Shown in pieces: positions 4,140-18,700 of a stretch of 64,000 nucleotides of DNA. Under the pieces are notes generated by a model. It did not search any database, had not been told where the DNA came from, and worked only from the letters and a program-made list of their open reading frames with translations. Both the position numbers and the translations under genes were made by a program. Where the stretch lies: contig CAVWVQ010000001.1 in assembly GCA_963758525.1 (NCBI GenBank), forward strand, positions 224,001-288,000, read 5' to 3'. The first letter of the stretch is position 1, and each line of letters begins with the position of its first letter. The DNA comes from an uncultured Phycisphaerales bacterium (GTDB lineage: Bacteria > Planctomycetota > Phycisphaerae > Tepidisphaerales > Tepidisphaeraceae).

Positions 4140-5344
4140 TGACGGTGGCGTCCAGCGCGGAAAAGCTCGCCAGCGATCGCCCGGCCGACATTCCGACTTC
4201 GCCGCTTGATCCTTCCACGCCGGTCATCACTTCGGCGGGGCTCGTCACCGCACTGGGCCAGACCTCGGCCCAAACGTGGGCCGCACTGCTGGAAGGGCGA
4301 TTCATCTCCGATCACGCGCGCGTTCCCATCCCATCGTCCCAAGACGAACCGCGCGTTGTCTCTCTCGCCAGAGCCGCGGTCCGCGAAGCAAATAACAAAC
4401 AACAGACGCACAGCCCTCACGCGCCCGATCGCAGTGCGCTGGTCGTCGGCACCAGCAAAGGCCCAATTGAGCAGTGGCTCAAATCCCCTCGTCATATGGC
4501 GCAATCGCCATATGATGGCGAGGGCCTCGCGCCAACCGGCCTCGGTCAGATCGCCGAGCGGCTCGGCAGTGACTTGCTCCTTCGCGGCCCCCGCCTCACG
4601 GTCTCCGCCGCCTGTGCCAGCGGTCTGCTGGCACTGATCCGCGCCGCGATGCTCATCAAAAACGACCAAGCCGATCGCGTTCTCGTCGTTGCCGCCGAGG
4701 CGTCGGTTCACCCGCTCTTCATCGGCAGCTTTCAACGATTGGGCGTCCTCCCCAAGACAGGCGGCGGGTGCCGGCCTTTCGATCAGCATCGCGAAGGATT
4801 TCTGATGAGCGAAGCCGCCGCCGCGGTCTGGCTGCACCGCGCGGATTGCGTCTCCGCTCAGACGGATGGAGACGACGCTCCCATCCGTGTCGCGGTCGAT
4901 CGTTTCTCCTTCGGCGCCGACGCCGCGCATCTCACCGGGATGGATCCCAACGGCAGGGTGCTCCGACGTGTCATCACGGATGCCGTCGGCGGTCGCCCGC
5001 TCGATCTGATCCATGCCCACGGAACCGGCACAACCCTGAACGATCCCGTCGAACTGGCCGCGATCAACGAGGCCGTGGCGACCCACGCGACCGTTCCGGA
5101 AATCTACTCGCACAAAGGCGCGCTCGGCCACAGCCTCGGCGCCTCCGGCCTGGCGTCACTTGCAATCAACTATCTGATTCATTCGCAGGGAACCGTTCCG
5201 CCGAACGTGAAGACCACTTCGCCGATCCCCACAGGCCGATTGCGGATTCATCCTCACCTCGTCCAACGCCCCGTCCGGCGAAGCCTCGCAGTCGCCGCCG
5301 GTTTCGGCGGGACGATCGCGGCGGTTGCGCTGCAAACAATATGA
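4136..5344 (+). CDS. beta-ketoacyl-ACP synthase (FabF/FabB-like)
   Basis: Catalytic [30 protein letters not shown]. Confidence 0.88.
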
Positions 5345-5387
5345 AAGTCTGAACCGCATCCGTAATGAGCCACGGATTGCCGGGAGA

Positions 5388-5726
5388 TCACCCGGCTCTG
5401 CGCTGGTTCATGACTAGTCGCAACCCTTCCGCCACCATTTGGGACCGCTTGAGTTTGTGCCGTTTCGCGAACGAGTCCGCCTCCTTGAGGAGGGTGCGTT
5501 CGATGCTGACGGACATCACCTTCGCGCCGGCGCCGACGGTGGGGCGTCCGCGCACCTTCCGCTGGAAGCGCTTCCATATCTTGCGTTCCGCGGCATTGAG
5601 GGGACGGGACTCCGAAAGCGGAACTTCTCCGCGCTCAAATATCGCCAGCTCCGCAGCTTTCTCGGCCGGGGAAAGTGCCAGGAATTTTTCCACCGCATCC
5701 GGCTCGCGCCGCTTTGCCTTTTTCAT
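5388..5726 (-). CDS. antitoxin, C-terminal RHH/CopG DNA-binding domain
   Basis: RGRP..G..VMSVSIERTLLKEADSFAKRHKLKRSQMVAEGL; GAAAGG RBS; directly downstream of toxin-like ORF. Confidence 0.7.
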   Translation of the reverse strand: MKKAKRREPDAVEKFLALSPAEKAAELAIFERGEVPLSESRPLNAAERKIWKRFQRKVRGRPTVGAGAKVMSVSIERTLLKEADSFAKRHKLKRSQMVAEGLRLVMNQRRAG

Positions 5727-5749
5727 AAGAACGCCTTTCTTCGTTTGCA

Positions 5750-5998
5750 TCATCGCCGCCGCCGGCCGGTCATTGGCATCGCGTGAATGATGTAGTACAC
5801 CCCGTCGCGATCGATCACGTATGCCACCTGGACCCATCGATCGCCGACGCCACGGCCGATGACTTGCCATTTGTCATCCCTGACGCGCCGGGGATACGGG
5901 CGCGCGCCGCCCGCACGACGCGCTCCGCCTCCCAGACCGAACGCCGTGCCTGGCCGCATGTTCAAATTCCAGTCGTTCCAGCGGAATTCCGCTTTCAT
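5750..5998 (-). CDS. BrnT/RelE-fold toxin-like protein (probable internal compensating frameshifts)
   Basis: EFRWNDWNL..HAARHGV, QVIGRG..RWVQVAY..IIHAMP; paralogue of 6096-6359. Confidence 0.6.
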   Translation of the reverse strand: MKAEFRWNDWNLNMRPGTAFGLGGGARRAGGARPYPRRVRDDKWQVIGRGVGDRWVQVAYVIDRDGVYYIIHAMPMTGRRRR

Positions 5999-6095
5999 CT
6001 GATTTAATTATGGAGTTAATCCGCGTCGATGCAAACTTATTCCGACGGAAACTATTATTCTTGCGTCCACTCCGATTTTCGCATATATAATAATC

Positions 6096-6359
6096 GTGCG
6101 GCAAGCGGATGACTTCCGGTGGAACGATGCGAACTTGGAGCATGCGACGAAGCACGGCTGCACGATCGCTGAGATCGAGCATCTGCTGCTGAATATTCCG
6201 CACGGATTTCCGCGCAGGATTGATCGCCACAAACGGCTGGTCATAGGACGCGGGCAGGGCGGACGACTCATCAGGGTGATCTACCTGCTCGATCCGCCGC
6301 CCGATGCTGCTTACTACGTCCTCCACGCCATGCCGCTGACATCGCGGCGCAGGCGGTGA
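6096..6359 (+). CDS. BrnT/RelE-fold toxin-like protein
   Basis: FRWNDANLEHATKHG..EIE..LVIGRG..RLIRVIY..VLHAMP. Confidence 0.7.
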   Translation: MRQADDFRWNDANLEHATKHGCTIAEIEHLLLNIPHGFPRRIDRHKRLVIGRGQGGRLIRVIYLLDPPPDAAYYVLHAMPLTSRRRR

Positions 6360-6394
6360 GGATCAACACCCGGCAATGCCGGGGGAAAGGCCAC

Positions 6395-6742
6395 ATGGCT
6401 CGCAAAACTGAAAAGGAACCAGCGACAGGCCGTGACTTCGAAGCCCTGCCGCGCGCCCAACGGGAGCGGATCATGGCGGAGCTTGACGCGGCCTCGACAG
6501 AGGAGCTGCTGGCCCGCTCCAAGCCGCTCACTCGCTCGCAAGCCGCCGCCGAGCGACGTCTGTGCGATGCGGTGAACGATCGCCGGGGACGCGGACGCCC
6601 AAAAGTCGGCAAGGGATCAAAACTTGTGGCTGTCACGCTTGAACAAGGTCTGCTGGAGGAAGTCGACCGTTTCGCCAAGCGGAAGAAGATGAAGCGTTCA
6701 GAGATGATTGCCAGCGGACTGAGACTCCTGATGGCTTCATAG
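6395..6742 (+). CDS. antitoxin, C-terminal RHH/CopG DNA-binding domain
   Basis: GRGRPKVGKGSKLVAVTLEQGLLEEVDRFAKRKKMKRSEMIASGL; GGAAAGG RBS. Confidence 0.7.
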   Translation: MARKTEKEPATGRDFEALPRAQRERIMAELDAASTEELLARSKPLTRSQAAAERRLCDAVNDRRGRGRPKVGKGSKLVAVTLEQGLLEEVDRFAKRKKMKRSEMIASGLRLLMAS

Positions 6743-6854
6743 AGCGTTCGCGGATCTTTGAAACCACACTTTTTAGGCAAGCGGCCGCTGCATAACCAGC
6801 CAATGCTGTGGACGACCCGCGTTGAGACAACGCAAAGTATACCAGTACCTTGCA

Positions 6855-6882
6855 ACTTAACATAACATGGATTATCGGACGT
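6855..6882 (-). other. dif: dif site (XerC/XerD), prophage left junction
   Basis: Minus strand reads ACGTCCGATAA-TCCATG-TTATGTTAAGT: 11-6-11 layout with a near-canonical XerD arm (E. coli TTATGTTAAAT). Confidence 0.9.
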
Positions 6883-7444
6883 GCAGAAGGGCGGCCAGAG
6901 AGGCCTATAACCGGCGGACACCGTTGATAGGTGCCCGCCAGCTAGAAGCCCACGGACTCCGGCCTGATGATAAGAGCCGGGCCGTGGAGAGCCCAAGTGT
7001 ACGTCCGAATATGCCCCGAGGCAAGAAATCATCATATCACCATTGACTGACTGCTAGCGGCTTCTAACCCGCTGCGCCAGATACCACCGGTGGGCTTCTA
7101 CTCCACCAACGATACCACCTATTGAACCAAACCCCGGCCCGACGTCAAGTGCCCTGCCCAGCAAAAATTAATCTTTTTTCGTCCCCAGCGCCGATTTGAG
7201 AGCGTGCCCGCCACAAAACCATTCAACCTCGACGACGCCTACAAACTCCAAAACATCTGGCGCGGCATGCGCGTCCTATGGCTCCCAATCACATTCGCTT
7301 TTTTCGTCGGCATGGGGATAACCATCCTCAAGGCACTTTTCACGCGACGCCCTCCAAGACGCCGACGATAATTCTCGGATTACAACCCACCACCCCTTGA
7401 CAGCGATGCAATCGACCTGTAACGCGCCGCAGGCCTGCAGGCAG

Positions 7445-8482
7445 TCACCACAATTTTGCCCCCTTGCTGGCCAGCACCAACCGCCACGCCCGCAACCCCA
7501 CCAGAAACCCCAACCCCAACGCGCTCGACTCCCCATACAAATGCAGCGCGCCCTCCAACCCCGCCAGCTGCGACGACCACGGCGACAACTCCACCGCAGC
7601 GCGCGAGAGGCGCGGAGCCACTCCTCCCCCGGCCGAACCCCACGGCGCGATCGGCCAAGACGCCACGTCGTCCGCCACCACCGCCCCGCCCACGAACCGG
7701 TTATCGGACGCTCGACCACCCGCCGAATACATCCCGTTCAGGATGTTGGTTCCCCAACCCTCGCAATCATTTCCGGTTATCAAAACATTGCTCTCGCCCA
7801 TGATTTCAATAGCGGTCTTGGCCCACAACGACACGCCCGCATCCGGCCCGGTCTGCAATAACACATTATTGCTTATCGTAATGTTGCTGCCGAACCCCAC
7901 CCACTCGGACCCGTCCCAATATCCGCCCGTCGCGCACGAAATCCCGATGTGCGAATCAACCCCGGCCCCGTCAACATGCGGCAACCAAGAGGACATCGAA
8001 TTACCGTCGACCAAAAGATGCGTCATACCCTTTTGTAGCTCAATCCCGATCCGCGTCGCATGCGTGATCACGTTCCCTTGCACCGTCAGCCCGTCACAAG
8101 CGGCCGACAGATGCACCGGCTCGTAAACCGCATCAAACGTGTTGCCCACGATCCGGCCACCGTCCCCCGGGTAGCCATAAATACCGCTACCACTCACCCC
8201 CGAAAACGTGCAACCAACGATCGACCAGTCACGCGCCCCCGCCCCTATAAAGATTGCGTCCCCATCAATGCCACTGAAGCTCGACCCCTCCACCACCACC
8301 CCGACCGCCCCATCCGCAATCACGACCTGCACACCTGGTCCGGTCACACCCCGCAACGAATCGCCCGACCCCAGCCGCACAACCGACCCACACGCACCCG
8401 AGGCCCACAACAGCAGAAACACGCAACACCGCCGCTGAGTCACACCCAGGTCAGTCACCCCAATTCCAAGCAATCCACGCAT
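7445..8482 (-). CDS. right-handed beta-helix protein fused to a C-terminal minor-coat-like anchor
   Basis: Signal-like N-terminus, repeated GN-x-I/F beta-helix rungs (IVGNTF, VQGNVI, VDGNSM, ISNNVL, ITGNDC); last 35 aa are 22/35 identical to ORF 15560-15697. Confidence 0.72.
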   Translation of the reverse strand: MRGLLGIGVTDLGVTQRRCCVFLLLWASGACGSVVRLGSGDSLRGVTGPGVQVVIADGAVGVVVEGSSFSGIDGDAIFIGAGARDWSIVGCTFSGVSGSGIYGYPGDGGRIVGNTFDAVYEPVHLSAACDGLTVQGNVITHATRIGIELQKGMTHLLVDGNSMSSWLPHVDGAGVDSHIGISCATGGYWDGSEWVGFGSNITISNNVLLQTGPDAGVSLWAKTAIEIMGESNVLITGNDCEGWGTNILNGMYSAGGRASDNRFVGGAVVADDVASWPIAPWGSAGGGVAPRLSRAAVELSPWSSQLAGLEGALHLYGESSALGLGFLVGLRAWRLVLASKGAKLW

Positions 8483-8499
8483 TTCTCGTCGCACTCTTT

Positions 8500-8689
8500 T
8501 CCCTCCCTGACACGGCGACCCCCCAATGACCCCATCAAACCGTCCAGCAGCTGCATGAAAGCGCCGCACGTCCCCGCCCCACAGAAGATCGGGCCCACGA
8601 ACGACCGCGAACCCCGCCGCCTCAAACCCCCGATCCATCAGGCCAATGCCCGGAAACAACGAAAGCACGACGCCGGCACACTCACACAT
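8500..8689 (-). pseudogene. N-terminal fragment of a C5 cytosine DNA methyltransferase
   Basis: Motif I LSLFPGIG and motif IV DGVIGGSPCQ present; motifs VI (ENV), VIII and X absent. Confidence 0.7.
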
Positions 8690-8861
8690 CACGCACCACC
8701 TTCCCGGAGGGTCACACCACTCCACAAACAACACCAGCGGAAACACCCACAACCGATGCCACCGTGACACGCCCGGCCGAAACTCCAACCGCCACGCGAC
8801 GCCACACGCTCGACAAAAGCGCCCCATCACGCACCACCTTTCTCTATTACTTGCCGACACC

Positions 8862-9038
8862 TCATCCTGCGTACTCCTCATGCTCCCGGATCAAACGACG
8901 GGCAGACTCCTCGATCACTTCCCGCACCGAAGCGCCCCCGCCCAACTCGCGTCGCACGTCACCGACCATCCGCGCCCACGCCTCGACCAGCAAAGTAAAG
9001 ATCTCTCCCACCTCGCACACACACTTGTCACCTGCCAT
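8862..9038 (-). CDS. small phage hypothetical protein (58 aa, MAGDKCVCEV...)
   Basis: Translated by hand; GAAAGGA RBS; directly downstream of rep. Confidence 0.5.
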   Translation of the reverse strand: MAGDKCVCEVGEIFTLLVEAWARMVGDVRRELGGGASVREVIEESARRLIREHEEYAG

Positions 9039-9052
9039 AGCGCACGTCCTTT

Positions 9053-10080
9053 CTAAATCGGCAGCCGATCGCAGTGACGCACAGGAGCCGGAGCCGGCTC
9101 ATCTGGCAGAAGCTTGCGATCGCCGTCACTCATCCTCGAATGCCCCCTTGCAAGCAGATTCTGGAGAAACATTTCCGCCCAGGCGTCACCCTGTTCTCTC
9201 TTATGCCACTCATGAACCATCGCCAGACGCCGACTTACTGTTCTCTCCAACCATCGCTGCATCGCCTCAAGCTCCTCCACCTCCTTCGGGTAGACCTTCA
9301 CCGCCGCCACGCCGAAGCCACCCCCGGATCGTCTCCCAAAACGGAGCCCGCCGGCGGCGCTCGACATGCAACGCGCGATCCTGATAGAAGTCGATCGACC
9401 CAGCCACCAACTCCCCAATCCGCCGAACCAACTCAGCGCCGGTGTACACGCCAAGCAGCTTGTCCCACACCGCGTCGGCATGAGCCTTAAAAAACCGTGC
9501 CTCATACCTCACCGCGTTAATCTCGCCATCCGATTCCGCCGCCTTGTCATACACGCACACCACCCGCCCGCCTTCACGCTCACCGAAATAAATCGTGTTC
9601 CCCTGCCGCCCCCCCTTGCCATCCCCCTCCTGGTGATGGCGGTGGCGACCCGGCCCAAACAATCGCGGCTCTGCATACCGCTCCCACAAGTCCGCCACCT
9701 CAATCACGCGCTCGAAGTCATCGAACGCACAATCCACCCGCGTCGCCTTGACCCCATGCACCCCACGCAGCCGCAACAGAAACCCCGCCATCGTCTCCGC
9801 GTCCAGCTGCGCAAGCCTGGCCGGTCACGTTCAGACAGACATCCGGCCTCGAGAACTCATCAGGGCCGCCATCCTCACACGGCGAGAAATTCAGCGTCAC
9901 ACCCGCCGTAAAGGCGTAGTGGCACCGATACCCCCGCACAACGCCGAACCGTTCCTCATGCGGCCACCCGAACACCTCTTCCACGATGTGCAGCAACGCC
10001 CCAATCTCCGTTGCCGGCGTCACAAACGTCAGCCAATCCAAACGAAGGACAGAACGACGTACACCACTTGGCGCATCCAT
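9053..10080 (-). CDS. rolling-circle replication initiator, Rep_trans family (split by 2 frameshifts)
   Basis: LRLDWLTFV, TRVDCAFDD, TIYFGEREGG..CVYDKAAE, VRYEARF across ORFs 9718-10080, 9267-9791 and 9053-9505. Confidence 0.85.
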
Positions 10081-10102
10081 GCTTACTCCGACTTGTCAAT
10101 CT

Positions 10103-10128
10103 GGACCCCCTGTTAGAGGGTGGGGTCC
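10103..10128 (-). other. putative double-strand origin / nick hairpin
   Basis: Minus strand GGACCCC-ACCCTCTAACAG-GGGGTCC; loop resembles the pT181-family nick motif CTCT^AATAG; lies just upstream of rep. Confidence 0.6.
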
Positions 10129-10299
10129 CCACAGACCACCACCCGCCCCGCCCCACAACGACAACGCCTACTCTCACAACAGCGCCCGCCGTCGACATCC
10201 ACCGCCAACCGAATGCGTCCACCGAAGACGATCACGACGACCCCGCCGCCCGGCAACGTCACCAACTCGCGAACGCACTCGAACCGAGAGACATCAAAC

Positions 10300-10740
10300 C
10301 ACGCCTCAGAGTTTTCATTTTCCCGCCCGCTCGAGCCGGCCCGAGCTCCGCCAGCCGGTCCCCGCCTTTGCTCAGAAACGCATTTACACGACGTGCGCAT
10401 ATGTCCACCTCGTAAAGTGTCAGATCTGATTCAATCGCAGAGCAGGGGGCGGCCCCCCTGCAACCCCCGGAAGGCGGCTCCGCCTGAAGGAAGCCGGCAA
10501 CAGCACCGGCCACGCCGGCAGCAAGCCCACCACTCCCGCAACAGTGCTGCCGTCATGTCCGGTGCAGATGCCGGCAGAAAGTGAGCGCTGCGCACAAGGA
10601 CGCTGCGCGGCCAATCTTTTTCCACCGCTCGCTGGGACGGAAGCGAGCGGCGGAAAAAAAATGTGCGGGGGGATGTTCCTGCCCGCACTCTCACGATGCC
10701 GCCGCGCTTCGCTTACCACCCGGCCCGGCCGGAAAGGATC
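10300..10740. other. phage intergenic region with multiple hairpins (candidate packaging signal / single-strand origin)
   Basis: Inverted repeats such as GCAGGGGG..CCCCCTGC (~10442-10460) and TTTTTTCC..CGCTCGCT/AGCGAGCG..GGAAAAAA (~10617-10660); no credible ORF. Confidence 0.55.
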
Positions 10741-10744
10741 CACC

Positions 10745-11155
10745 ATGGCACGCCCCACCGAACTGATCGAGATAGACGGAGAAATCGAACACTTACGCCG
10801 ACGCATCAACGATCTCACGCAATCACTCGCCGTCACAGACGCAACGGCGGACCTCGCGCGAAAGGAACTCGCACGGCTCAACGCGTACATCGGCGGAGTG
10901 CACGGCGAACACGGCCGCGGTATCGGAGCGTTACAGCAGACTTGCGCGGACCTCATCAAGAGCCTCGACGCGGTCGCAACCGAAACACAAAAGCGGCTCG
11001 ACGAGATCCGCGCCAACCTCGACGAGCTCGACGACATCGTAGAGAGCCACCTCAAGGTCACGCAGAGACTCGACGCCCGCCAAAACCAAGCACACGACTG
11101 GCTAACAGCGTTAGAAGCTCGCATAGCGCAACTCGAGGCAGACGACAACCCCTGA
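10745..11155 (+). CDS. coiled-coil phage protein (only antisense gene of the prophage)
   Basis: GAAAGGA RBS, 136 aa with heptad periodicity. Confidence 0.7.
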   Translation: MARPTELIEIDGEIEHLRRRINDLTQSLAVTDATADLARKELARLNAYIGGVHGEHGRGIGALQQTCADLIKSLDAVATETQKRLDEIRANLDELDDIVESHLKVTQRLDARQNQAHDWLTALEARIAQLEADDNP

Positions 11156-11196
11156 TGGATCAACACGCCGGCGGCGCACCCGCGCCGCCGGCACAG

Positions 11197-11433
11197 TCAC
11201 ACGTCCCCCGCCGCCGAGTCACAGCCTGGCGAGTCACACATCCCCACCACCGGCGACGGCCCACCCCCGTCCCGCACCGCACGCCACACCCGCTGCGCAT
11301 CCGCCCCGTGCGCGAACTCCACGCGCCCGCCCACGAAGGAAATCACCAAGCGGTCCGAACCCTCCCACCGCACCGACGCCACGTAGCGCAGCACAATCAC
11401 CGTACGACCCAAGACCAACCGTTCGTCCGTCAC
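11197..11433 (-). CDS. small phage hypothetical protein
   Basis: GTG start overlapping the secretin stop (GTGA); 78 aa. Confidence 0.5.
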   Translation of the reverse strand: MTDERLVLGRTVIVLRYVASVRWEGSDRLVISFVGGRVEFAHGADAQRVWRAVRDGGGPSPVVGMCDSPGCDSAAGDV

Positions 11434-12902
11434 CGTCCACCTGCCTTTGCTACCGCTATCGCCGCCTCTGCCGCCGACAACCGATCCTGATCGGCCCGGT
11501 ACACGGCTTCCCACTCACGGCGAATCGCCAACACGTCACGCCCGACCTCCTCGACCGATCTATCCACCGGAGCCGGCCCCCGCCCAGGCACGTCTACCGG
11601 CCCCACCGGCTTGAGCGGCACGTCCGGCGACCCGCTCGGCCTAGGGGCCTCGCTCCCGCCGTCCGTCCGCTCCACCGGCCCGCCTGTACCCCGGCCCACG
11701 CGCGTCACGCTGGCCCACAGCTGGACGACCCGGCCGGAGCTCTCCGCGTCCGCCAACGATTGCAGCCCCAGCGTATGACTCAGCGTCCACGTGCGGCGCT
11801 CCACCTCGCCCACCAGCGCCGTCCCACCAACGTCGATCGGGGCCGAGGCGGCGAACTGGAAACCGGTCGTCGTCGGAACCCCCTGATCAGACAGCGCCAG
11901 CAACGACGTGCTGGAATAATCCACCGTCAACGCAGCACGATCCGTCCCGGCCGGACGAACAGTCAACGTCACGTCGAGGCCCACCCGATAAGGAACCAAC
12001 GTGCTTTGCGTTTGCGTCCCCTGATCATTCGTCGCCGACTGCGGCAACAGGTACGTCGTCCCATCCGACAACTTCCCCGGCACGCCGCCCGCCAGCACCA
12101 TCAGCGGCGACACCAGCGCCCGCACGTGATTGTTCTCATGGCTCGCCACAATCATGGCCTGCAACATCGCGCTTGCCACCGTCGTGACTCCACCGGTCGC
12201 GACATGGCCCAACACGCCCTGGAGCGTCACAGTCGCCGAACCGTCCCACCCCACCTTTTGCAGAAACTCGCGCGACACGTCGAACGCGTAGACGTGAATC
12301 AGCCACGCATCCGCCGGCGCCGCATCAAGCTGCGCCAACACATCGCCTATCTTCTGGTCGATTTCCACGCTGTCACCCACGACTACGATTCCGTCCTCGG
12401 TCACCGAAAGCCGCCCGGCGTCCGACAGATAGACCCGCAACAGCGCATCCAACTTATCCGGCGCGACCCGAGCACACCGACCAACGAGAACCGCGCGATC
12501 CTGCGGCCGCAATGAGCCGATAAACCACAACGACCCCAGGCGAGTCACATCCGCCCCAACGCGCCTCGCGACCGCCGCCAGCACGTCGCCCACCGGCACG
12601 CCCTGCACCCGAATATTCACTGTTGACTTATCCAACTTGGCCTCACAGATCGCCGACACGCCATCATCCACCGCCAGCCGCCCGAGGAACTGCTCGAGCG
12701 TTATGCCCTCCGCTGACAACGAAACGCGCGCCCCCGTGTCCCGTGTCTGCAGCGCCGACGCCACCGGCAGCGCTGCCGAGTACGCCGCCCGGAACTCCCG
12801 CTCCGCCCGCAACTCCGGCGCTTCTTGGCACCCAATCGCGACCGAGAGCCACATGCCGCACCACCCCGCGCCGATCGAACGTAGCAACGCCTTCAACATC
12901 AT
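11430..12902 (-). CDS. secretin (pIV-like), probable lipoprotein
   Basis: Lipobox-like VAIGC, N0 domain (VSLSAEGITLEQFL..VNIRVQGVPVGDVL), N3 domain, secretin beta domain (SPLMVLAGG..VGLDVTLTVRP). Confidence 0.8.
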   Translation of the reverse strand: MMLKALLRSIGAGWCGMWLSVAIGCQEAPELRAEREFRAAYSAALPVASALQTRDTGARVSLSAEGITLEQFLGRLAVDDGVSAICEAKLDKSTVNIRVQGVPVGDVLAAVARRVGADVTRLGSLWFIGSLRPQDRAVLVGRCARVAPDKLDALLRVYLSDAGRLSVTEDGIVVVGDSVEIDQKIGDVLAQLDAAPADAWLIHVYAFDVSREFLQKVGWDGSATVTLQGVLGHVATGGVTTVASAMLQAMIVASHENNHVRALVSPLMVLAGGVPGKLSDGTTYLLPQSATNDQGTQTQSTLVPYRVGLDVTLTVRPAGTDRAALTVDYSSTSLLALSDQGVPTTTGFQFAASAPIDVGGTALVGEVERRTWTLSHTLGLQSLADAESSGRVVQLWASVTRVGRGTGGPVERTDGGSEAPRPSGSPDVPLKPVGPVDVPGRGPAPVDRSVEEVGRDVLAIRREWEAVYRADQDRLSAAEAAIAVAKAGGR

Positions 12903-14100
12903 TCACCACCTCAAGCCGCCAACCCAACGCGGCACCACTCTCCACAGTTTCGCCCACACGCAACACGGCCCCATCCTCAAACACGACCTCTTCCCGACGC
13001 ACGAGCACCAGGCGAACAACCCCCACGCGATCGTCGACCAACGCCGGCCGACCAGCCGCTGCCCCCCCCCCCACACCACCTCCACCCCGATATCGCCCCC
13101 CGCCGAGCTCAGTCACACGATGCCCACCCACGCCCTGGTCGGTCACCCCCGCAGGCCCAGCGCCTTGTGACGCCGGCAACGCGGCCCGCATATTCTTCGC
13201 AGCAAACCCCCCGACCCCCGACACGATGCCGTGCACGAGGCACCCGCCGCCGCCACAGACGAAAAACAACGGCAACCACAAAAGCCAAGACCGCATCAAC
13301 AACGCATAAAAGTGCTTCGACACGAACCAATTGATCAGGCCCGGCCAAGACCGCCGCTCATACTCCCTCTTGCGCGGCCCGCCCGCCTGCCCGCCCCCCG
13401 ACTCCGGCTTGGAGTAGCTGTCGTAGAGCTCAAAGTACCGAGGCAGAAGGTAGTGAAACTTTTCGCGCTCGCGGATGAAGCGCGCATTAACTTCGCGCCC
13501 CAGTGTCTCCCAAACCGCCGCAAGATATGTCCCGGTAAGTTTTGCGCGTAATTCATACCAATCTCCGAGCTCGATGTGAAAAAACGGGTCGGGGCGCTCA
13601 TCACTATGAACGAGCTCACGACGGAGCCCGCTCTCATTCTTGATAACGCGCGCCACCTTCATCTCGTTCTGACTTAGAAATTCTATAGTCGCCCCCTGAT
13701 GCCGAATCGTCCCCAACCATTTCTGCCACTGCGCCAGATATGACATCTTCGCCCCGACCCCCGCATACTCATGGATTTCGTCAATGGCGATATGGGTATC
13801 GGCCAACGATTGCCCCTTGAAGAAATCCCACGGGCCGCGCTGCCCCAGCCGCCACGCCGCCAACTCCTCCTCCGGGAAACGATGCAGCCGCGCCTCATAC
13901 TCATCAGCATCGCCATTCTTATTCTTCGACCACTGCGCCGCCAAGACCGCCAACGTGCGCGGCTCATACGGAAAGTTGCTCCAATGATGCAAGTTCGTTT
14001 CCGGCAGCAACTCCTCCGAGAGGAATTTCGCACACCGCAGCAAACTCTTGCCGCTGCCGGCCCGCCCCACTGTGAATTGAACCGACGTCCTGACGGCCAT
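12664..14100 (-). CDS. Zot-like assembly ATPase (pI)
   Basis: N-terminal Walker A GRAGSGKS, Walker B IAIDEIH, RHQG..LSQ motif, central TM helix. Confidence 0.9.
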   Translation of the reverse strand: MAVRTSVQFTVGRAGSGKSLLRCAKFLSEELLPETNLHHWSNFPYEPRTLAVLAAQWSKNKNGDADEYEARLHRFPEEELAAWRLGQRGPWDFFKGQSLADTHIAIDEIHEYAGVGAKMSYLAQWQKWLGTIRHQGATIEFLSQNEMKVARVIKNESGLRRELVHSDERPDPFFHIELGDWYELRAKLTGTYLAAVWETLGREVNARFIREREKFHYLLPRYFELYDSYSKPESGGGQAGGPRKREYERRSWPGLINWFVSKHFYALLMRSWLLWLPLFFVCGGGGCLVHGIVSGVGGFAAKNMRAALPASQGAGPAGVTDQGVGGHRVTELGGGRYRGGGGVGGGAAAGRPALVDDRVGVVRLVLVRREEVVFEDGAVLRVGETVESGAALGWRLEVVNDVEGVATFDRRGVVRHVALGRDWVPRSAGVAGGAGVPGGVLGSAAGGVGAADTGHGGARFVVSGGHNARAVPRAAGGG

Positions 14101-14101
14101 A

Positions 14102-14200
14102 CTACTCCCAATCCTGCAACGCAACCCACAACAGCGCGGCCATCCCCCACCCGCAAAGCGCCAGCTTCACCAACAAGTCGACCACCACATCGGACCGCAT
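14102..14200 (-). CDS. 32-aa single-TM phage protein
   Basis: Hand-translated MRSDVVVDLLVKLALCGWGMAALLWVALQDWE; AGGGAG RBS; fills the pVI-pI gap. Confidence 0.5.
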   Translation of the reverse strand: MRSDVVVDLLVKLALCGWGMAALLWVALQDWE

Positions 14201-14226
14201 CGCGACTCCCTGGACAGTCACGCCCC

Positions 14227-14490
14227 TCAGAACAGCCGCACGACCAGCTTGACGCAAAAGTACACAATGAACGACACCAGAAACCCCGCGAGGAGCTCAC
14301 AAAGCGTATCCAGTGGAAACCACAGATTGAGCAGCGAGCAGTACGTCGCAAGCGTCGCCAGCGTTGCGTTAGTCGGGATCGTCGGCAGCGGCGCGACCGC
14401 CAGTTGCAGCAACGTGTACCCGAGCTCGCACGCCCAATTCTCGAGGTACCCCAAGAAGTTCAGCAGCGCCTGCAACACGTAATAAATCAT
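14227..14490 (-). CDS. minor coat protein pVI-like
   Basis: 87 aa, hydrophobic, LNLWFPLDT motif, located between the pIII-like gene and Zot. Confidence 0.75.
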   Translation of the reverse strand: MIYYVLQALLNFLGYLENWACELGYTLLQLAVAPLPTIPTNATLATLATYCSLLNLWFPLDTLCELLAGFLVSFIVYFCVKLVVRLF

Positions 14491-14493
14491 GGG

Positions 14494-15521
14494 TCACCAG
14501 TCCTTCAACGTCTTCCACAACAGCCAACAAAACGACATGACCAAAAAGAATGTCGCCACCCCACGAACCGTGCCCTGCGCCCCCGACACAGCCGAACCAT
14601 AAGGCGTACCGTTCAGCGTGAACGACCCCGACTGCGGGTTAACGTCGATGCGGATTTCCGACCCGCCAAGCACACTCGGCAGATGCCAATCGACCGGCTC
14701 CAACGTCATCTGTTCAGAGAGATTCGCCGAACTGAACTGCGCGGCGAATGGAAACTTCGTGGTCAGCAACGTCTCAATCTCCCCCATGCAACTGGGCGCC
14801 GTCGTCGCGGGTTGCGTTGTCGGAGAAGGGCTGGTCGTCGTCGACGTGTCAGACGCCCCGGTAGTCGGGGCCAGCCCCGTAATCGTGATCTGCGCGTACC
14901 CCGGCGGCACCGAGTGCGACGCCCACGCATTTTGCCCTCCATTCAACGCGGTGAACAACGGCGAGAATGCCATCGTCACGTAGTAATTCGTCGCCCCGCC
15001 ACCCGACGGATACGACACGGGATCTTCCCCAAAATCCCCATTCAGCTTCGTGGCCGACGAATACGGCTCGCGCCAGTAGAACGTGTTGACATCGGTCCCC
15101 TGATCCCCAGCGTACACCTGGACCCCACCAATCCAGACCTGATACCCCGTCGCGTCGAGCTCGATCTTAAAATCCACCTCGAGCCGATCCCCGTTCGGAA
15201 CGTACGCCGACCCGCTCCAGCGCCACAAATCCAAAGCAAACGTCCCCTCATAGACGCCATTACTCCCGCTAGACCCCAACCCGCACTGGACCGTCAGCAA
15301 GTTTTGAAATGAAGGGAACCCCGAATTAACTTGGCCCGGCGGCAAGAACACGTCCGGGAACCCCGCCCGTGGGTATTGCGTCAGCGCCCCGACAGGTCCC
15401 CGTAAAAGAGGCTGCTCCCGTATTGGTACGCTACCGTCGCTTCCGCCTGAAAATCCACCGGATTGCCAGCCGCCCCACCCGCCACGACCGACAAGGCCAG
15501 CGCCACGAAGGCAACCCGCAT
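14494..15521 (-). CDS. attachment protein pIII-like (frameshifted near 15350-15390)
   Basis: Signal peptide MRVAFVALALSVVAGGAAG, beta-rich domain, Thr/Pro linker, C-terminal TM anchor, upstream of pVI. Confidence 0.7.
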
Positions 15522-15559
15522 CGCACCCAGCTCAGTCACACCACCGCCCATCGCACGCC

Positions 15560-15697
15560 TCAAAAGAATTTGGACATCTTGGAGAGCATCACCAAGCGCC
15601 ACAGCTGCAACCCGACGAGGAAACCGACGCCGAGCGCTATCGCCTCACCATATAGATTGATGGCACCCATCAACTGGCTGAACTGGTCATCCGTCAT
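15560..15697 (-). CDS. small minor coat-like protein (pVII/pIX-like), 45 aa
   Basis: Acidic N-terminus, one TM helix, basic C-terminus (MTDDQFSQLMGAINLYGEAIALGVGFLVGLQLWRLVMLSKMSKFF). Confidence 0.65.
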   Translation of the reverse strand: MTDDQFSQLMGAINLYGEAIALGVGFLVGLQLWRLVMLSKMSKFF

Positions 15698-15830
15698 ACG
15701 CTTCCGACCCCGAGCACTCATGCTCAACCTTGCAATGCCAGTACGCGGCCGACATGGACTTGACAATGTCACCACACATCGGACACCGCAACGTCACACC
15801 AGTACCGTAAGACACGGCGACCTCCAATCA

Positions 15831-15872
15831 CAAAAGGGGAGCGGAGCGCCCGCAACGCAGGCGCCCCGCTCA
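15831..15872 (-). terminator. intrinsic terminator after major coat gene
   Basis: GAGCGGGGCGCC..GGCGCTCCGCTC hairpin followed by CCCTTTT; same position as the central terminator of Ff phages. Confidence 0.6.
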
Positions 15873-15887
15873 GGCGGAAAACCGGGA

Positions 15888-16130
15888 TCAGCCACCCTTG
15901 ACGCCGCGACGCGCCCACTTCCAGAACGCGGCGAAGATCACCAGCGCGATGAACACGCCGAACAAGACACCGAGAATGGTGCCCATGTTCGCCGCAGCCG
16001 CGGTGGTCAAGGAGCCAGCGTCAACGCCGAGATCAAACGGCGTGGAATCCGCGCGGGCCGTGGCCGACAGACCCACAAGAGCAGTGCACATCAACAGTGC
16101 ACCGACGATACGAGAACGGAACCGAGACAT
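15888..16130 (-). CDS. major coat protein (pVIII-like)
   Basis: GAGGAG RBS; signal peptide ending ARA; 53-aa mature protein with acidic N-terminus, TM helix and basic WKWARRGVKGG tail. Confidence 0.85.
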   Translation of the reverse strand: MSRFRSRIVGALLMCTALVGLSATARADSTPFDLGVDAGSLTTAAAANMGTILGVLFGVFIALVIFAAFWKWARRGVKGG

Positions 16131-16201
16131 AGAAACTCCTCATACATGACGACCACACCGGCCGTCCCTCTTACCGAGGCTTGACCCGCCAAACACCCTG
16201 G

Positions 16202-17379
16202 TCAGTCACCACCCACCATCCGACCTATCAACGCTTCCGCTTTTCCACGACACTCCACGCAGCGCGAGTTCCCCGCAATCACAGGAGCCCCACATTCCCA
16301 ACACGTAGGCGACTCCACCTCCTCCGCCTCACTCACAGCCCCCCCCGGCGAATTGTCCCCCAACTCGGAGCCCATCGACTCCAACGACTCTCCACCCGAC
16401 ACCTCCCCATACACATGATGCTCGACCGCCCCCACCACCGCGCCTTCGTTCGAGTCAATCACCATCCCCCCATCTTCGCCCGCCATCTGCCGCACGCACC
16501 GCCGACAAAAACCGCCGCCGTCACCATCGCGCTCAGCACGACTCAACCGAACCCCGCACCCGTCACACCGCCACGCATCAACCCCCGGCCCCTCCTCCAC
16601 CGCAGGCTCCGTCCCGCCTCCCACCGACCGCTTAGACCAAATCCAAAACGCGCCGAGGACCAAGAGCACAAGAACACACCGAAGATCAAACCCAGGTGAC
16701 CCCCCATCGCCGACGCCACGCTCGCCACCTTAGCCCCCACCGAACCCGAACCCGCCTTCCCCAAACCCGCCGAATCAAAGGTATAAGTGCCCGCCCCATC
16801 CCCCCCCCCACCGCCACCAGCCCCGCCACCCGAACCGCCACCACCCGAGCCACCACCGCCCGATCCGCCACCTGAACCACCGCCAGCACCGAAACCACTC
16901 CCAGGCGACGACCACAGGACCCCCGAGCCCGAAACCGTCCCATCCGTCCCCAGCGAAACGACATCGTCCACACCCGACGTCAGCACATCCGCCCCACTCA
17001 CCGCGTCCGCTTCTGCCGCAGCTAACGCCGACGAGTCACCCGCGAACCCACCGTCAAACACCACCCCACTCTCTGAATCGAAGCCCACACTCTCACGGGT
17101 CTCACCGGCGGAAACCGTATCGTAATAAAACGGCGAACCATCCACACTCACCAACTCAGTCACCCAAAACCCCTCATCATTAACGCCACCAACCAGGTTC
17201 GGAACCGAATCATCAGAAAAACTAATCGTCCGAGACTGCGCCCGACACACCCCCGGCAACACTAGAAATGCCAGCAGCCAAACCACAAGCACGGGTAGCG
17301 CACGACCAGTTGACCGCACCACACCACCCGCACCACCCACAGAACCAAGGTTACCGCAACAATCACGATCCGAGCACAT
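16202..17379 (-). CDS. passenger domain + Gly linker + major-coat paralogue + Cys-rich tail (1-nt frameshift at ~16670)
   Basis: Signal peptide (VCRA-Q), acidic beta domain, GGGS-type linker, coat-like helix 17/32 identical to pVIII, then CxxC x4. Confidence 0.65.
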
Positions 17380-17561
17380 ACACACCACCTTTCGACCGCG
17401 CACACTGACGACACGACCAAGCCTCGCATCGCGCCACCCCACACACACACGCGACCCACGACACGAGGCACCATGCGACTCCACCAAAACCAGACCACCA
17501 CGACTCACAGTCGCCCCAACCCAACAACCGCAGCTATCGCACAACGCCACCAACGAACACA

Positions 17562-17720
17562 TCACCCACCCCCCACAGCCCGAGCCGCATGCCTGGCCAG
17601 CGCCCCAAACACATTCAGCGCCACCTGAATCGACACCATCAAACCCACCACAAGCGCCAGCGTCGCCACGAGCTCACCCAACACTTCCAACGGCACAAAA
17701 CCCGGATCAGGAATAGTCAT
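17562..17720 (-). CDS. 52-aa single-TM phage protein (minor coat-like)
   Basis: Hand-translated MTIPDPGFVPLEVLGELVATLALVVGLMVSIQVALNVFGALARHAARAVGGG; TGATG coupling at both ends. Confidence 0.6.
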   Translation of the reverse strand: MTIPDPGFVPLEVLGELVATLALVVGLMVSIQVALNVFGALARHAARAVGGG

Positions 17721-17878
17721 CACTTGCCCTTAGAAAACGCCTTATCCACCCAACCCCAACCCCGCGCCGCCTGAATCAGCAGGTGGATCGTCAGGCCGCA
17801 CCCGAATCCCACCCCCACCCCGATCCGCAGGAGCTCCCACGCCGTCGCGACCTCGATCGTTGGCATTGTCGTAGGCAT
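17720..17878 (-). CDS. 52-aa single-TM phage protein (minor coat-like)
   Basis: Hand-translated MPTTMPTIEVATAWELLRIGVGVGFGCGLTIHLLIQAARGWGWVDKAFSKGK; GAAAGG RBS. Confidence 0.6.
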   Translation of the reverse strand: MPTTMPTIEVATAWELLRIGVGVGFGCGLTIHLLIQAARGWGWVDKAFSKGK

Positions 17879-18050
17879 CGCGCCGAACCTTTCTCACCCC
17901 CAACAACAACCCCAAAACCGACGCGAGCATCATCGCCAACACGAACCGCCCGAACGCACAGGACGCACACGCCAGCACCATGACAACTCCCAAAACACCC
18001 AGCGGGGTCGCTAGACCCCGCCGAGCGGACAGAAACACACCGACCAGCAA

Positions 18051-18431
18051 CTACCTCGCAGCCTGGGCAGTCACAGGCCCAGCACCATTTCCGGGAGCCT
18101 TCACCGCCGCAGGCATGCCGCGCTTGCGGATGCCCATCGCCGTCAGGTCACATTCCGCCAACAGCGCTTCCGGCTCAAAAGACACCACACGCAAAACCGT
18201 CGTGCGGCCGTACGTCTCCTCCTCCACGTCCACGTTGACCACGATCGGACCACCGGCAGCGATCGTCCCCGCAAAATCGGTCGCGATCGCCTTCGTCGTC
18301 CGATACGTCTTGGCCTCATAGCCAAAGGCGCCCGTCTTCTTGGTCACACTGCCCATGAGCGCCCACAACTCGCTGTAGTCACGCCCGTCATCTGCCACAC
18401 GCGGGTTCGCACCCGTAACAATCAGACGCAT
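18051..18431 (-). CDS. ssDNA-binding protein (pV / Pf1 gene-5-like)
   Basis: 126 aa beta-rich OB-like core (GAFGYEAKTY..GPIVVNV..YGRTT) with Ala/Pro-rich tail; first gene of the structural operon. Confidence 0.65.
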   Translation of the reverse strand: MRLIVTGANPRVADDGRDYSELWALMGSVTKKTGAFGYEAKTYRTTKAIATDFAGTIAAGGPIVVNVDVEEETYGRTTVLRVVSFEPEALLAECDLTAMGIRKRGMPAAVKAPGNGAGPVTAQAAR

Positions 18432-18583
18432 ACCGGCCTCTCTTTCTATTGCGAGCCTATCACTCGCCACCACACTCCAGACCGACAGCGCACGAGAACG
18501 CCCCGCCCGCTGGTCAGAGTTAAAAAGCGCAAAAATTGAAATAAACGTTAATGCCGCAAGAATCGGCAAAAACCCCTCTTTTT

Positions 18584-18611
18584 CAATTGCATAACATGGA
18601 TTATCGGACGT
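18584..18611 (-). other. prophage right junction, dif-like site with degenerate XerD arm
   Basis: Minus strand ACGTCCGATAA-TCCATG-TTATGCAATTG. Confidence 0.85.
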
Positions 18612-18700
18612 AGGGGGGCTAAGTCCTTATTTTCCGGGGATCTACGATCTGGCGTGATGGTTATTGCTTCAAACGCCGCCTACATGGCCGGCTTTGGGAG

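Follow-up and report, generated by a model that had tools for sequence, protein, structure and literature searches.

Attachment sites (attP) of elements that hijack the Xer recombinases of their host (IMEX) fall into three classes, established in Vibrio, and folding of the site has been linked to irreversibility. In the CTX type the fork stands on the XerD side and belongs to the junction opposite the new dif. In CTXphi of Vibrio cholerae (and also in RS1, Ypf and CUS-1) the folded site, attP(+), consists of two inverted dif-like sites with both arms each; from the attP1/attP2 table in the excerpted text of PMC3089051 we infer the XerD side for its fork, and in excerpts of PMC4246890 the duplex sites of the CTX type are unusable, with an over-long or incompatible centre, and irreversible. 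Another signature, that of attP-TLC (TLCphi) and dif-GGI (the gonococcal island), is an XerC arm and centre equal to those of dif beside a divergent XerD arm (excerpts of PMC4246890 and PMC5357621); phiLf and Cf1c are placed in this XerD-first class in the same excerpts of PMC4246890. The attP-VGJ of VGJphi is a single duplex dif-like site in an inovirus, with two usable junctions. Here we describe a planctomycete prophage whose single strand is predicted to fold back, immediately inward of the left junction, onto the XerC arm. The resulting hairpin is genuine, comes back in related prophages and is linked to the XerC arm; the mechanism that we propose for it is hypothetical.

The window, a 64,000-nucleotide stretch of a contig from an uncultured Phycisphaerales bacterium, holds an 11.7-kb filamentous phage inserted at the host dif (Table 1). 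It has the genes that mark an inovirus, a pI-like ATPase, a rolling-circle Rep and small membrane proteins, all on one strand, and the profile scores of the prophage genes are 1.6e-7 (phrog_197), 1.1e-6 (phrog_1012) and 3e-18 (PF02486). Of 21 pI matches, the 17 listed are 28-81% identical, and Pfam Zot is present in 12 of the 21; the nearest homologues among those listed (P0002 and P0004) are 76-81% identical. No tyrosine recombinase (PF00589) match occurs within the prophage, and the models for host XerC and XerD have one match each above the curated cut-off, both outside it. With no integrase of its own, dif-like junctions at both ends and XerC and XerD encoded by the host, the element is an IMEX, and to this extent the interpretation in the earlier note is supported. 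Searches for free or circular close relatives gave no match to a 20-nt junction pattern in viral contigs, and none of the 26 matches to a 15-nt pattern came with inovirus markers; a single pI query for relatives gave no confirmed locus, and comparison of pI with annotated phages gave no match.

Some of the genes in and around the prophage have features of their own. Rep is split over two overlapping frames (9267-10080), by real inactivation or assembly error. The final phage ORF (7445-8881) carries a beta-helix/tail-spike-like domain and a weak DNA-methyltransferase-like stretch near its N-terminus, and may be a fused or broken gene. Outside the prophage and adjoining dif, two similar two-gene modules stand back to back (5388-5998 on the minus strand, 6096-6742 on the plus strand), resembling toxin-antitoxin pairs by weak antitoxin-like/repressor matches.

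We name the arms by their likeness to the dif arms in the excerpted text of PMC3089051. Within 7 mismatches, the two junctions are the only dif-like sites genome-wide, and a dif query finds matches in 21 of 24 same-family genomes, mostly to this very 28-mer and mostly in single copy. In a genome of the same genus the empty site carries this 28-mer too, and the G-run behind it equals the one at window position 18612. From this uniqueness, the conservation in relatives, the empty site and the host XerC and XerD, we conclude that the left junction is the full dif. Since neither GC skew nor a KOPS-like 8-mer shows a clear polarity at the site, the identity of dif rests on sequence, uniqueness and conservation. 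At most host dif sites a G-rich run lies 3' of the XerC arm (window 18612-18618); it is partly retained phage-side and is possibly an accessory or FtsK-related signal. Centre and XerC arm are the same at both junctions, and 5 of 11 positions of the phage XerD arm are changed, all of them outer, with the inner 5 kept, which is the sequence signature of the TLC/GGI sites.

Table 1. Features of the prophage, its junctions and the predicted folds (window coordinates).
Feature	Position	Strand	Remark
Left junction, complete host dif	6855-6882	+	XerD arm 6855-6865, centre 6866-6871, XerC arm 6872-6882
Outer stem, 5' half	6875-6892		outer 8 nt of XerC arm plus phage flank; pairing probability 0.8-1.0
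Inovirus prophage body	6883-18583	-	genes on minus strand; strong minus-strand G/T skew
Extra small hairpin in multibranch loop	6893-6905		predicted folds
Inner stem-loop 1	6911-6941		two G-T pairs on minus strand
Inner stem-loop 2	6950-6987		predicted folds
Outer stem, 3' half	6991-7008		includes inverted partial XerC arm (7001-7011; 9/11)
Small hairpin and possible weak partner	7012-7045	-	hairpin 7012-7023; candidate partner 7027-7045 in circular viral strand
Rep_trans gene	9267-9791	-	profile matches
pIV/secretin-like gene	11430-12902	-	profile matches
pI/Zot-like gene	12664-14124	-	profile matches
XerD-side hairpin	18528-18590	-	pairs outer 7-8 nt of phage XerD arm
Right junction	18584-18611	+	phage XerD arm, then identical centre, then XerC arm

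In the intergenic stretch beyond the last phage gene lies the forked hairpin of the earlier note, with its outer stem and two inner stem-loops. All of these stems are present in the sequence and in the minimum-free-energy (MFE) and centroid folds of both strands. The hairpin has energies of -41.7 and -41.5 kcal/mol on the two strands (z -5.9 and -5.6), is matched by none of 200 shuffles and has the lowest z among 124 sliding windows over the element. We rejected a host repeat or IS end as its origin, the hairpin having no second copy in the genome or the fetched loci; between 6700 and 7500 there is no Rfam match at E<=1. The fork is less simple than two branches: both inner stem-loops are there, but further hairpins form inside it (6893-6905) and just outside (7012-7023). 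The inverted copy of the XerC arm, likewise, matches at 9 of 11 positions with the outer 8 contiguous, but the inner TTA beside the cleavage point is absent. As had been claimed, the mismatches of the first inner stem (6912/6940 and 6918/6934) become G-T pairs on the minus strand. The outer-stem mismatch 6883/7000, however, is a G-T pair on the plus strand, and both strands fold equally well (-37.4 versus -37.7), so that the case for the minus strand is weaker than it had seemed.

Does the fold recur? Among 141 family genomes, strong pI matches were found in G000, G015, G072, G092, G119 and G122, with a partial prophage in G020. Counting as evaluable those with both junctions present gives five prophages; G122, whose contig has no att, and G020, which lacks the left junction on its phage side, were left out, as were many pI loci without a recognisable dif. 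Across three pI lineages, every one of the five prophages has one centre shared by its two ends (three variants overall), a degenerate right XerD arm and an XerC-arm fold-back just inside the left junction, which supports the recurrence in related prophages. In each of the five, 7-9 XerC-arm bases are paired at p>0.8, while the flanks of empty dif sites reach at most 6 (none of 44 has 7 or more); the Fisher value of 5e-7 for 5/5 versus 0/44 is, like our other Fisher values, overstated, related elements not being independent, and omitting control L115 (from G004) from the 44 alters nothing. The right-junction host flanks of the same five prophages pair 0-6 arm bases. Per-element shuffles separate the folds modestly, the arm-base count being reached by 0-5 of 60 and the summed XerC-arm pairing by 0-9 of 60. 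Loop length varies between 8 and about 120 nt, the inner sequences are unlike one another, and in G015 and G119 the hairpin is scarcely more than the XerC arm and its complement. In G000 and G119 the wobble pairs of the outer stem speak for the plus strand. The partner strand often distorts the inner XerC arm by a bulge, a deletion or an extruded hairpin.

These numbers bear on the idea that we are looking at a chance fold, or at the decaying relic of an old inverted duplication. GC-rich DNA does fold readily, and a shuffled flank will on average pair some 4-5 arm bases, but with z about -5.7, recurrence over three pI lineages and 0/44 controls we think this very improbable. A different suggestion is that the inverted copy, acting in the duplex or in transient single strands, is a regulator (an extra XerC half-site, an arm-masking cruciform or a promoter element) and tunes excision or transcription instead of creating a substrate. 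Host genomes are rich in intergenic copies of the 9-mer GTCCGATAA, a part of the XerC arm (55 of 72 lie between genes in G000, genome-wide; 66 versus 7 for the control in G020). The motif is mildly biased in both genomes to positions upstream of starts and resembles the sigma-28 -10 element. Moreover, the partner in G015 fits the host-type XerD arm of the left junction better than it fits the phage arm, and in G382, an element of the wider sample below, the inverted copy stands directly before a ribosome-binding-like site and start codon. Yet the copies in G000, G119, G072 and G338 have no intact inner ATAA, which is common to Xer arms and needed by the motif, the nested stems keep the register of the XerC arm, and no sigma-70 promoter or terminator match occurs between 6700 and 7500. 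On balance we judge a regulatory role unlikely, if less so than chance.

Now we consider the layout of the site, which the earlier note had called CTXphi-like. As with attP(+), the site belongs to an integrase-less inovirus at dif, it folds back into a fork of similar size (about 135 nt) with an inverted copy of an Xer arm, and the top strand cleaved by XerC is the coding, likely viral, strand. The layout itself does not hold up. The fork here is on the XerC side and adjoins the full, regenerated dif, and a part of one arm is copied where CTX has both arms twice. Within 260 nt no inverted phage XerD arm reaches 8/11, and the inverted host XerD arm has a single 8/11 match, located inside inner stem 2. 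The duplex site is a normal 28-bp site with a 6-bp centre identical to that of dif, a property that attP1 and attP2 of CTX lack, so irreversibility is not predicted, unlike in CTXphi. The CTX feature of two duplex arms is approached at a cost: the MFE structure pairs 8 arm bases, and pairing can be extended to 24 of 28 site bases in a structure that lies 1.4-1.5 kcal/mol higher and is borderline against shuffles.

This extension emerged when we folded the rebuilt circle junction, as the earlier note had proposed. The XerC arm is mostly reconstituted, its outer 8 bases firmly, but no clean two-arm site results, and in the MFE structure the inner TTA, the centre and the XerD arm are unpaired with the partner strand. 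The candidate partner at 7027-7045 can pair with the inner XerC arm, the centre and the phage XerD arm, and does so in 10-20% of the ensemble; with the host XerD arm in place of the phage arm, 8 site bases are paired instead of 24/28. Shuffles equal the extension in 4 of 100 and 2 of 25 cases, and three other constraints in 29-64 of 100. The XerD-side hairpin at the other end pairs 7.8 nt versus a shuffled mean of 3.3 (0/60), is not general among relatives and, with flank added, engages the outer XerD arm with 18528-18538 in competition with the 7027-7045 extension. In G072 the partner pairs the phage XerD arm across 9.9 kb, best on the viral strand (9.4/11; 0/30 shuffles), and such cognate pairing is strong only in G072 and G347. 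The covariation check finds no general backing for the XerD arm, with a permutation p of 0.22 and the cognate ranked first in 2 of 10. With a pairing bonus, shuffles match the ten elements in 2, 20, 0, 10, 1, 10, 13, 3, 2 and 4 of 25 cases, at best a weak trend. Pairing over the cleavage site and XerD arm is weak in the window and not general.

Six further elements whose XerD arm is degenerate came from scans of the class, the phylum and the collection (G032, G338, G347, G382, L071 and G030). An XerC-side fold is present in G338 and in G032, in the latter only without its XerD-side flank; it is absent from the G338 dif element that has no inovirus marker match. G347 and G382 have the inverted copy with genes in the opposite orientation, and there it may be a promoter-like motif of the host. 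No clear fold is seen in L071, the closest pI relative among these elements, and G030 folds from the XerD side. An inverted match of at least 15 to arm plus centre occurs in 8 of the 10 elements scored (G030 left out) versus 3 of 44 controls (p 6e-6), and in 9 of 11 elements the top strand, the one cleaved by XerC, is also the coding strand. The centre is identical at both ends in 11/11 (7 variants, XerD-proximal bases included), a result that is partly ascertainment, as the two ends of G015, G072, G119 and G030 were matched to each other by way of the centre.

A few other arrangements turned up at dif. G338 (C1) has a tandem array of three sites with the same centre (L175: 100 and 11254; L152: 16702), in which an 11-kb element without inovirus marker matches is placed before an inovirus. 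In L018 (G005) a stretch of 2.5 kb (4439-6950) runs from a full dif to a dif-like site that is highly degenerate and whose centre differs. The two ends of contig L166 each carry a dif-like site, the one at the start being inverted, and these would make an XerC-side pair if the contig were circular; it was left out, no terminal overlap supporting joined ends. In seven inoviruses (L075, L084, L147, L151, L157, L167 and L170) the polarity is the opposite one, XerD arm and centre being kept and the XerC arm degenerate. The XerD arm is shared in G185, G270, G332, L075, L084, G850 and G732, of which 5 were folded and show no consistent fold.

More distant relatives contain fold-back sites that do look like CTX, in L083 (3822 region), L093 (1721 region), L090 (5023), L095 (175) and L069 (3470-3535). 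In all five, both arms are paired from the XerD side, the XerD arms being unrecognisable by sequence and yet fully paired, and in L083 and L093 the XerD-side fork is seen directly. Where both ends are available, the centre is unlike that of the host (2/2). By their records L083 is from Victivallales and L093 from Lentisphaeria, far outside the proteobacterial examples. Because these five show full CTX-like folds, related inoviruses do carry folded attP-like sites; they are a positive control, and the window site is clearly another layout. A canonical CTXphi-type attP, for which the forked fold of about 135 nt, the inverted arm copy and the inovirus at dif would speak, thus retains next to no credibility, given an opposite fork side, a normal identical centre, no inverted XerD arm and true CTX-like relatives that differ so clearly. 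The site may still work like CTX despite failing its layout.

Could the duplex site alone do the work? Entry and exit might both use the double-stranded 28-bp attP along the TLC/GGI route, XerD acting first and XerC second with FtsK or an unrecognised phage activator, and the hairpin would then be a separate packaging or complementary-strand-origin signal that borrows the XerC arm. We regard this as a serious possibility. The published attP-TLC/dif-GGI signature is matched (excerpts of PMC4246890 and PMC5357621), as are their two Xer-like junctions, FtsK-family genes are found in the host genome, and the centres, identical in 11/11 partly through ascertainment, differ in 2/2 true CTX-like elements with both ends. 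An intergenic hairpin after the last gene is also where a packaging signal or origin could sit, those of inoviruses being stem-loops (10.1101/2023.12.30.573655, in excerpt); the packaging-signal/origin stem-loops of Ff and Xanthomonas phiLf are likewise intergenic and single-stranded, but here the stem closes on an Xer arm. That closure in 5/5 with loops of 8 to 120 nt is left unexplained by the TLC/GGI route, as is the cross-junction XerD-arm pairing in G072. Nor did an Xer activator of the XafT-like family appear among 23 ORFs, 4 of these flanking the prophage, or a small protein common to the dif elements emerge as a potential one. TLC and GGI sites are described with no fold-back in the excerpts cited, and they belong to a satellite or an island, whereas this is a complete inovirus. 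The site also resembles attP-VGJ, whose centre, however, departs from dif on the XerD side (excerpts of PMC4246890 and PMC5357621), whereas the divergence from dif is here in the XerD arm and the centre is unchanged.

Our own preference, tentative and close to an even call, is for a mirror-image single-strand attP for XerC with the duplex site kept for excision, or "fold in, duplex out". In this model the incoming viral single strand, folded back, would likely become the substrate of host XerC, with the CTXphi layout mirrored. The coding strand of the rebuilt circle reads, in order, partner strand, fork, XerC arm, centre and degenerate XerD arm. Folding of the strand is predicted to make the XerC arm duplex, and protein binding to carry the pairing on into the centre and XerD arm, at a cost of about 1.5 kcal/mol here and almost none in G072. 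XerC would then cut the top strand at the border of arm and centre and exchange it with dif, and replication would complete the insertion. A single XerC exchange of this kind would leave the host XerD arm and centre with the fork on the left and the phage centre and XerD arm on the right, as is observed. Given the perfect 6-bp duplex centre, a full XerD and XerC crossover between the junctions would excise the phage, and the identity of the centres implies that a second exchange, by XerD, has been selected for at some stage, as in TLC/GGI. An arm on a single strand cannot be bound in any case, so there is no gain in masking it; what the fold plainly does is supply a duplex XerC arm. Duplex entry is nearly as good a reading, given a partner that often distorts the inner arm and an extension that is weak in the window.

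We find no XerC-side fold described in the abstracts and text passages covered here (among them those of PMC4246890, PMC3089051, PMC5357621 and PMC9226527, and likewise PMC12715192, PMC7307601, PMC3025954, 10.64898/2026.06.12.731946 and 10.1101/2023.12.30.573655). It is possible, if rather doubtful, that a fourth kind of Xer-hijacking site exists, with folded-ssDNA entry by XerC, duplex exit by full crossover and a bulged, loosely paired partner, and that it is usual in this family of planctomycete-like hosts beside CTX-type and XerD-arm-sharing layouts in related inoviruses.

An earlier genome-wide dif prediction failed for its single planctomycete (excerpts of PMC3025954), and the element set assembled here also yields a dif consensus for that lineage. 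Five natural variants with small hairpins are available. If the proposed reading is true, fold-back and a reversible duplex centre in one site would break the link between folding and irreversibility, it would show how little single-strand duplex XerC and XerD require, and related phages would hold natural intermediates between the CTX and TLC strategies.
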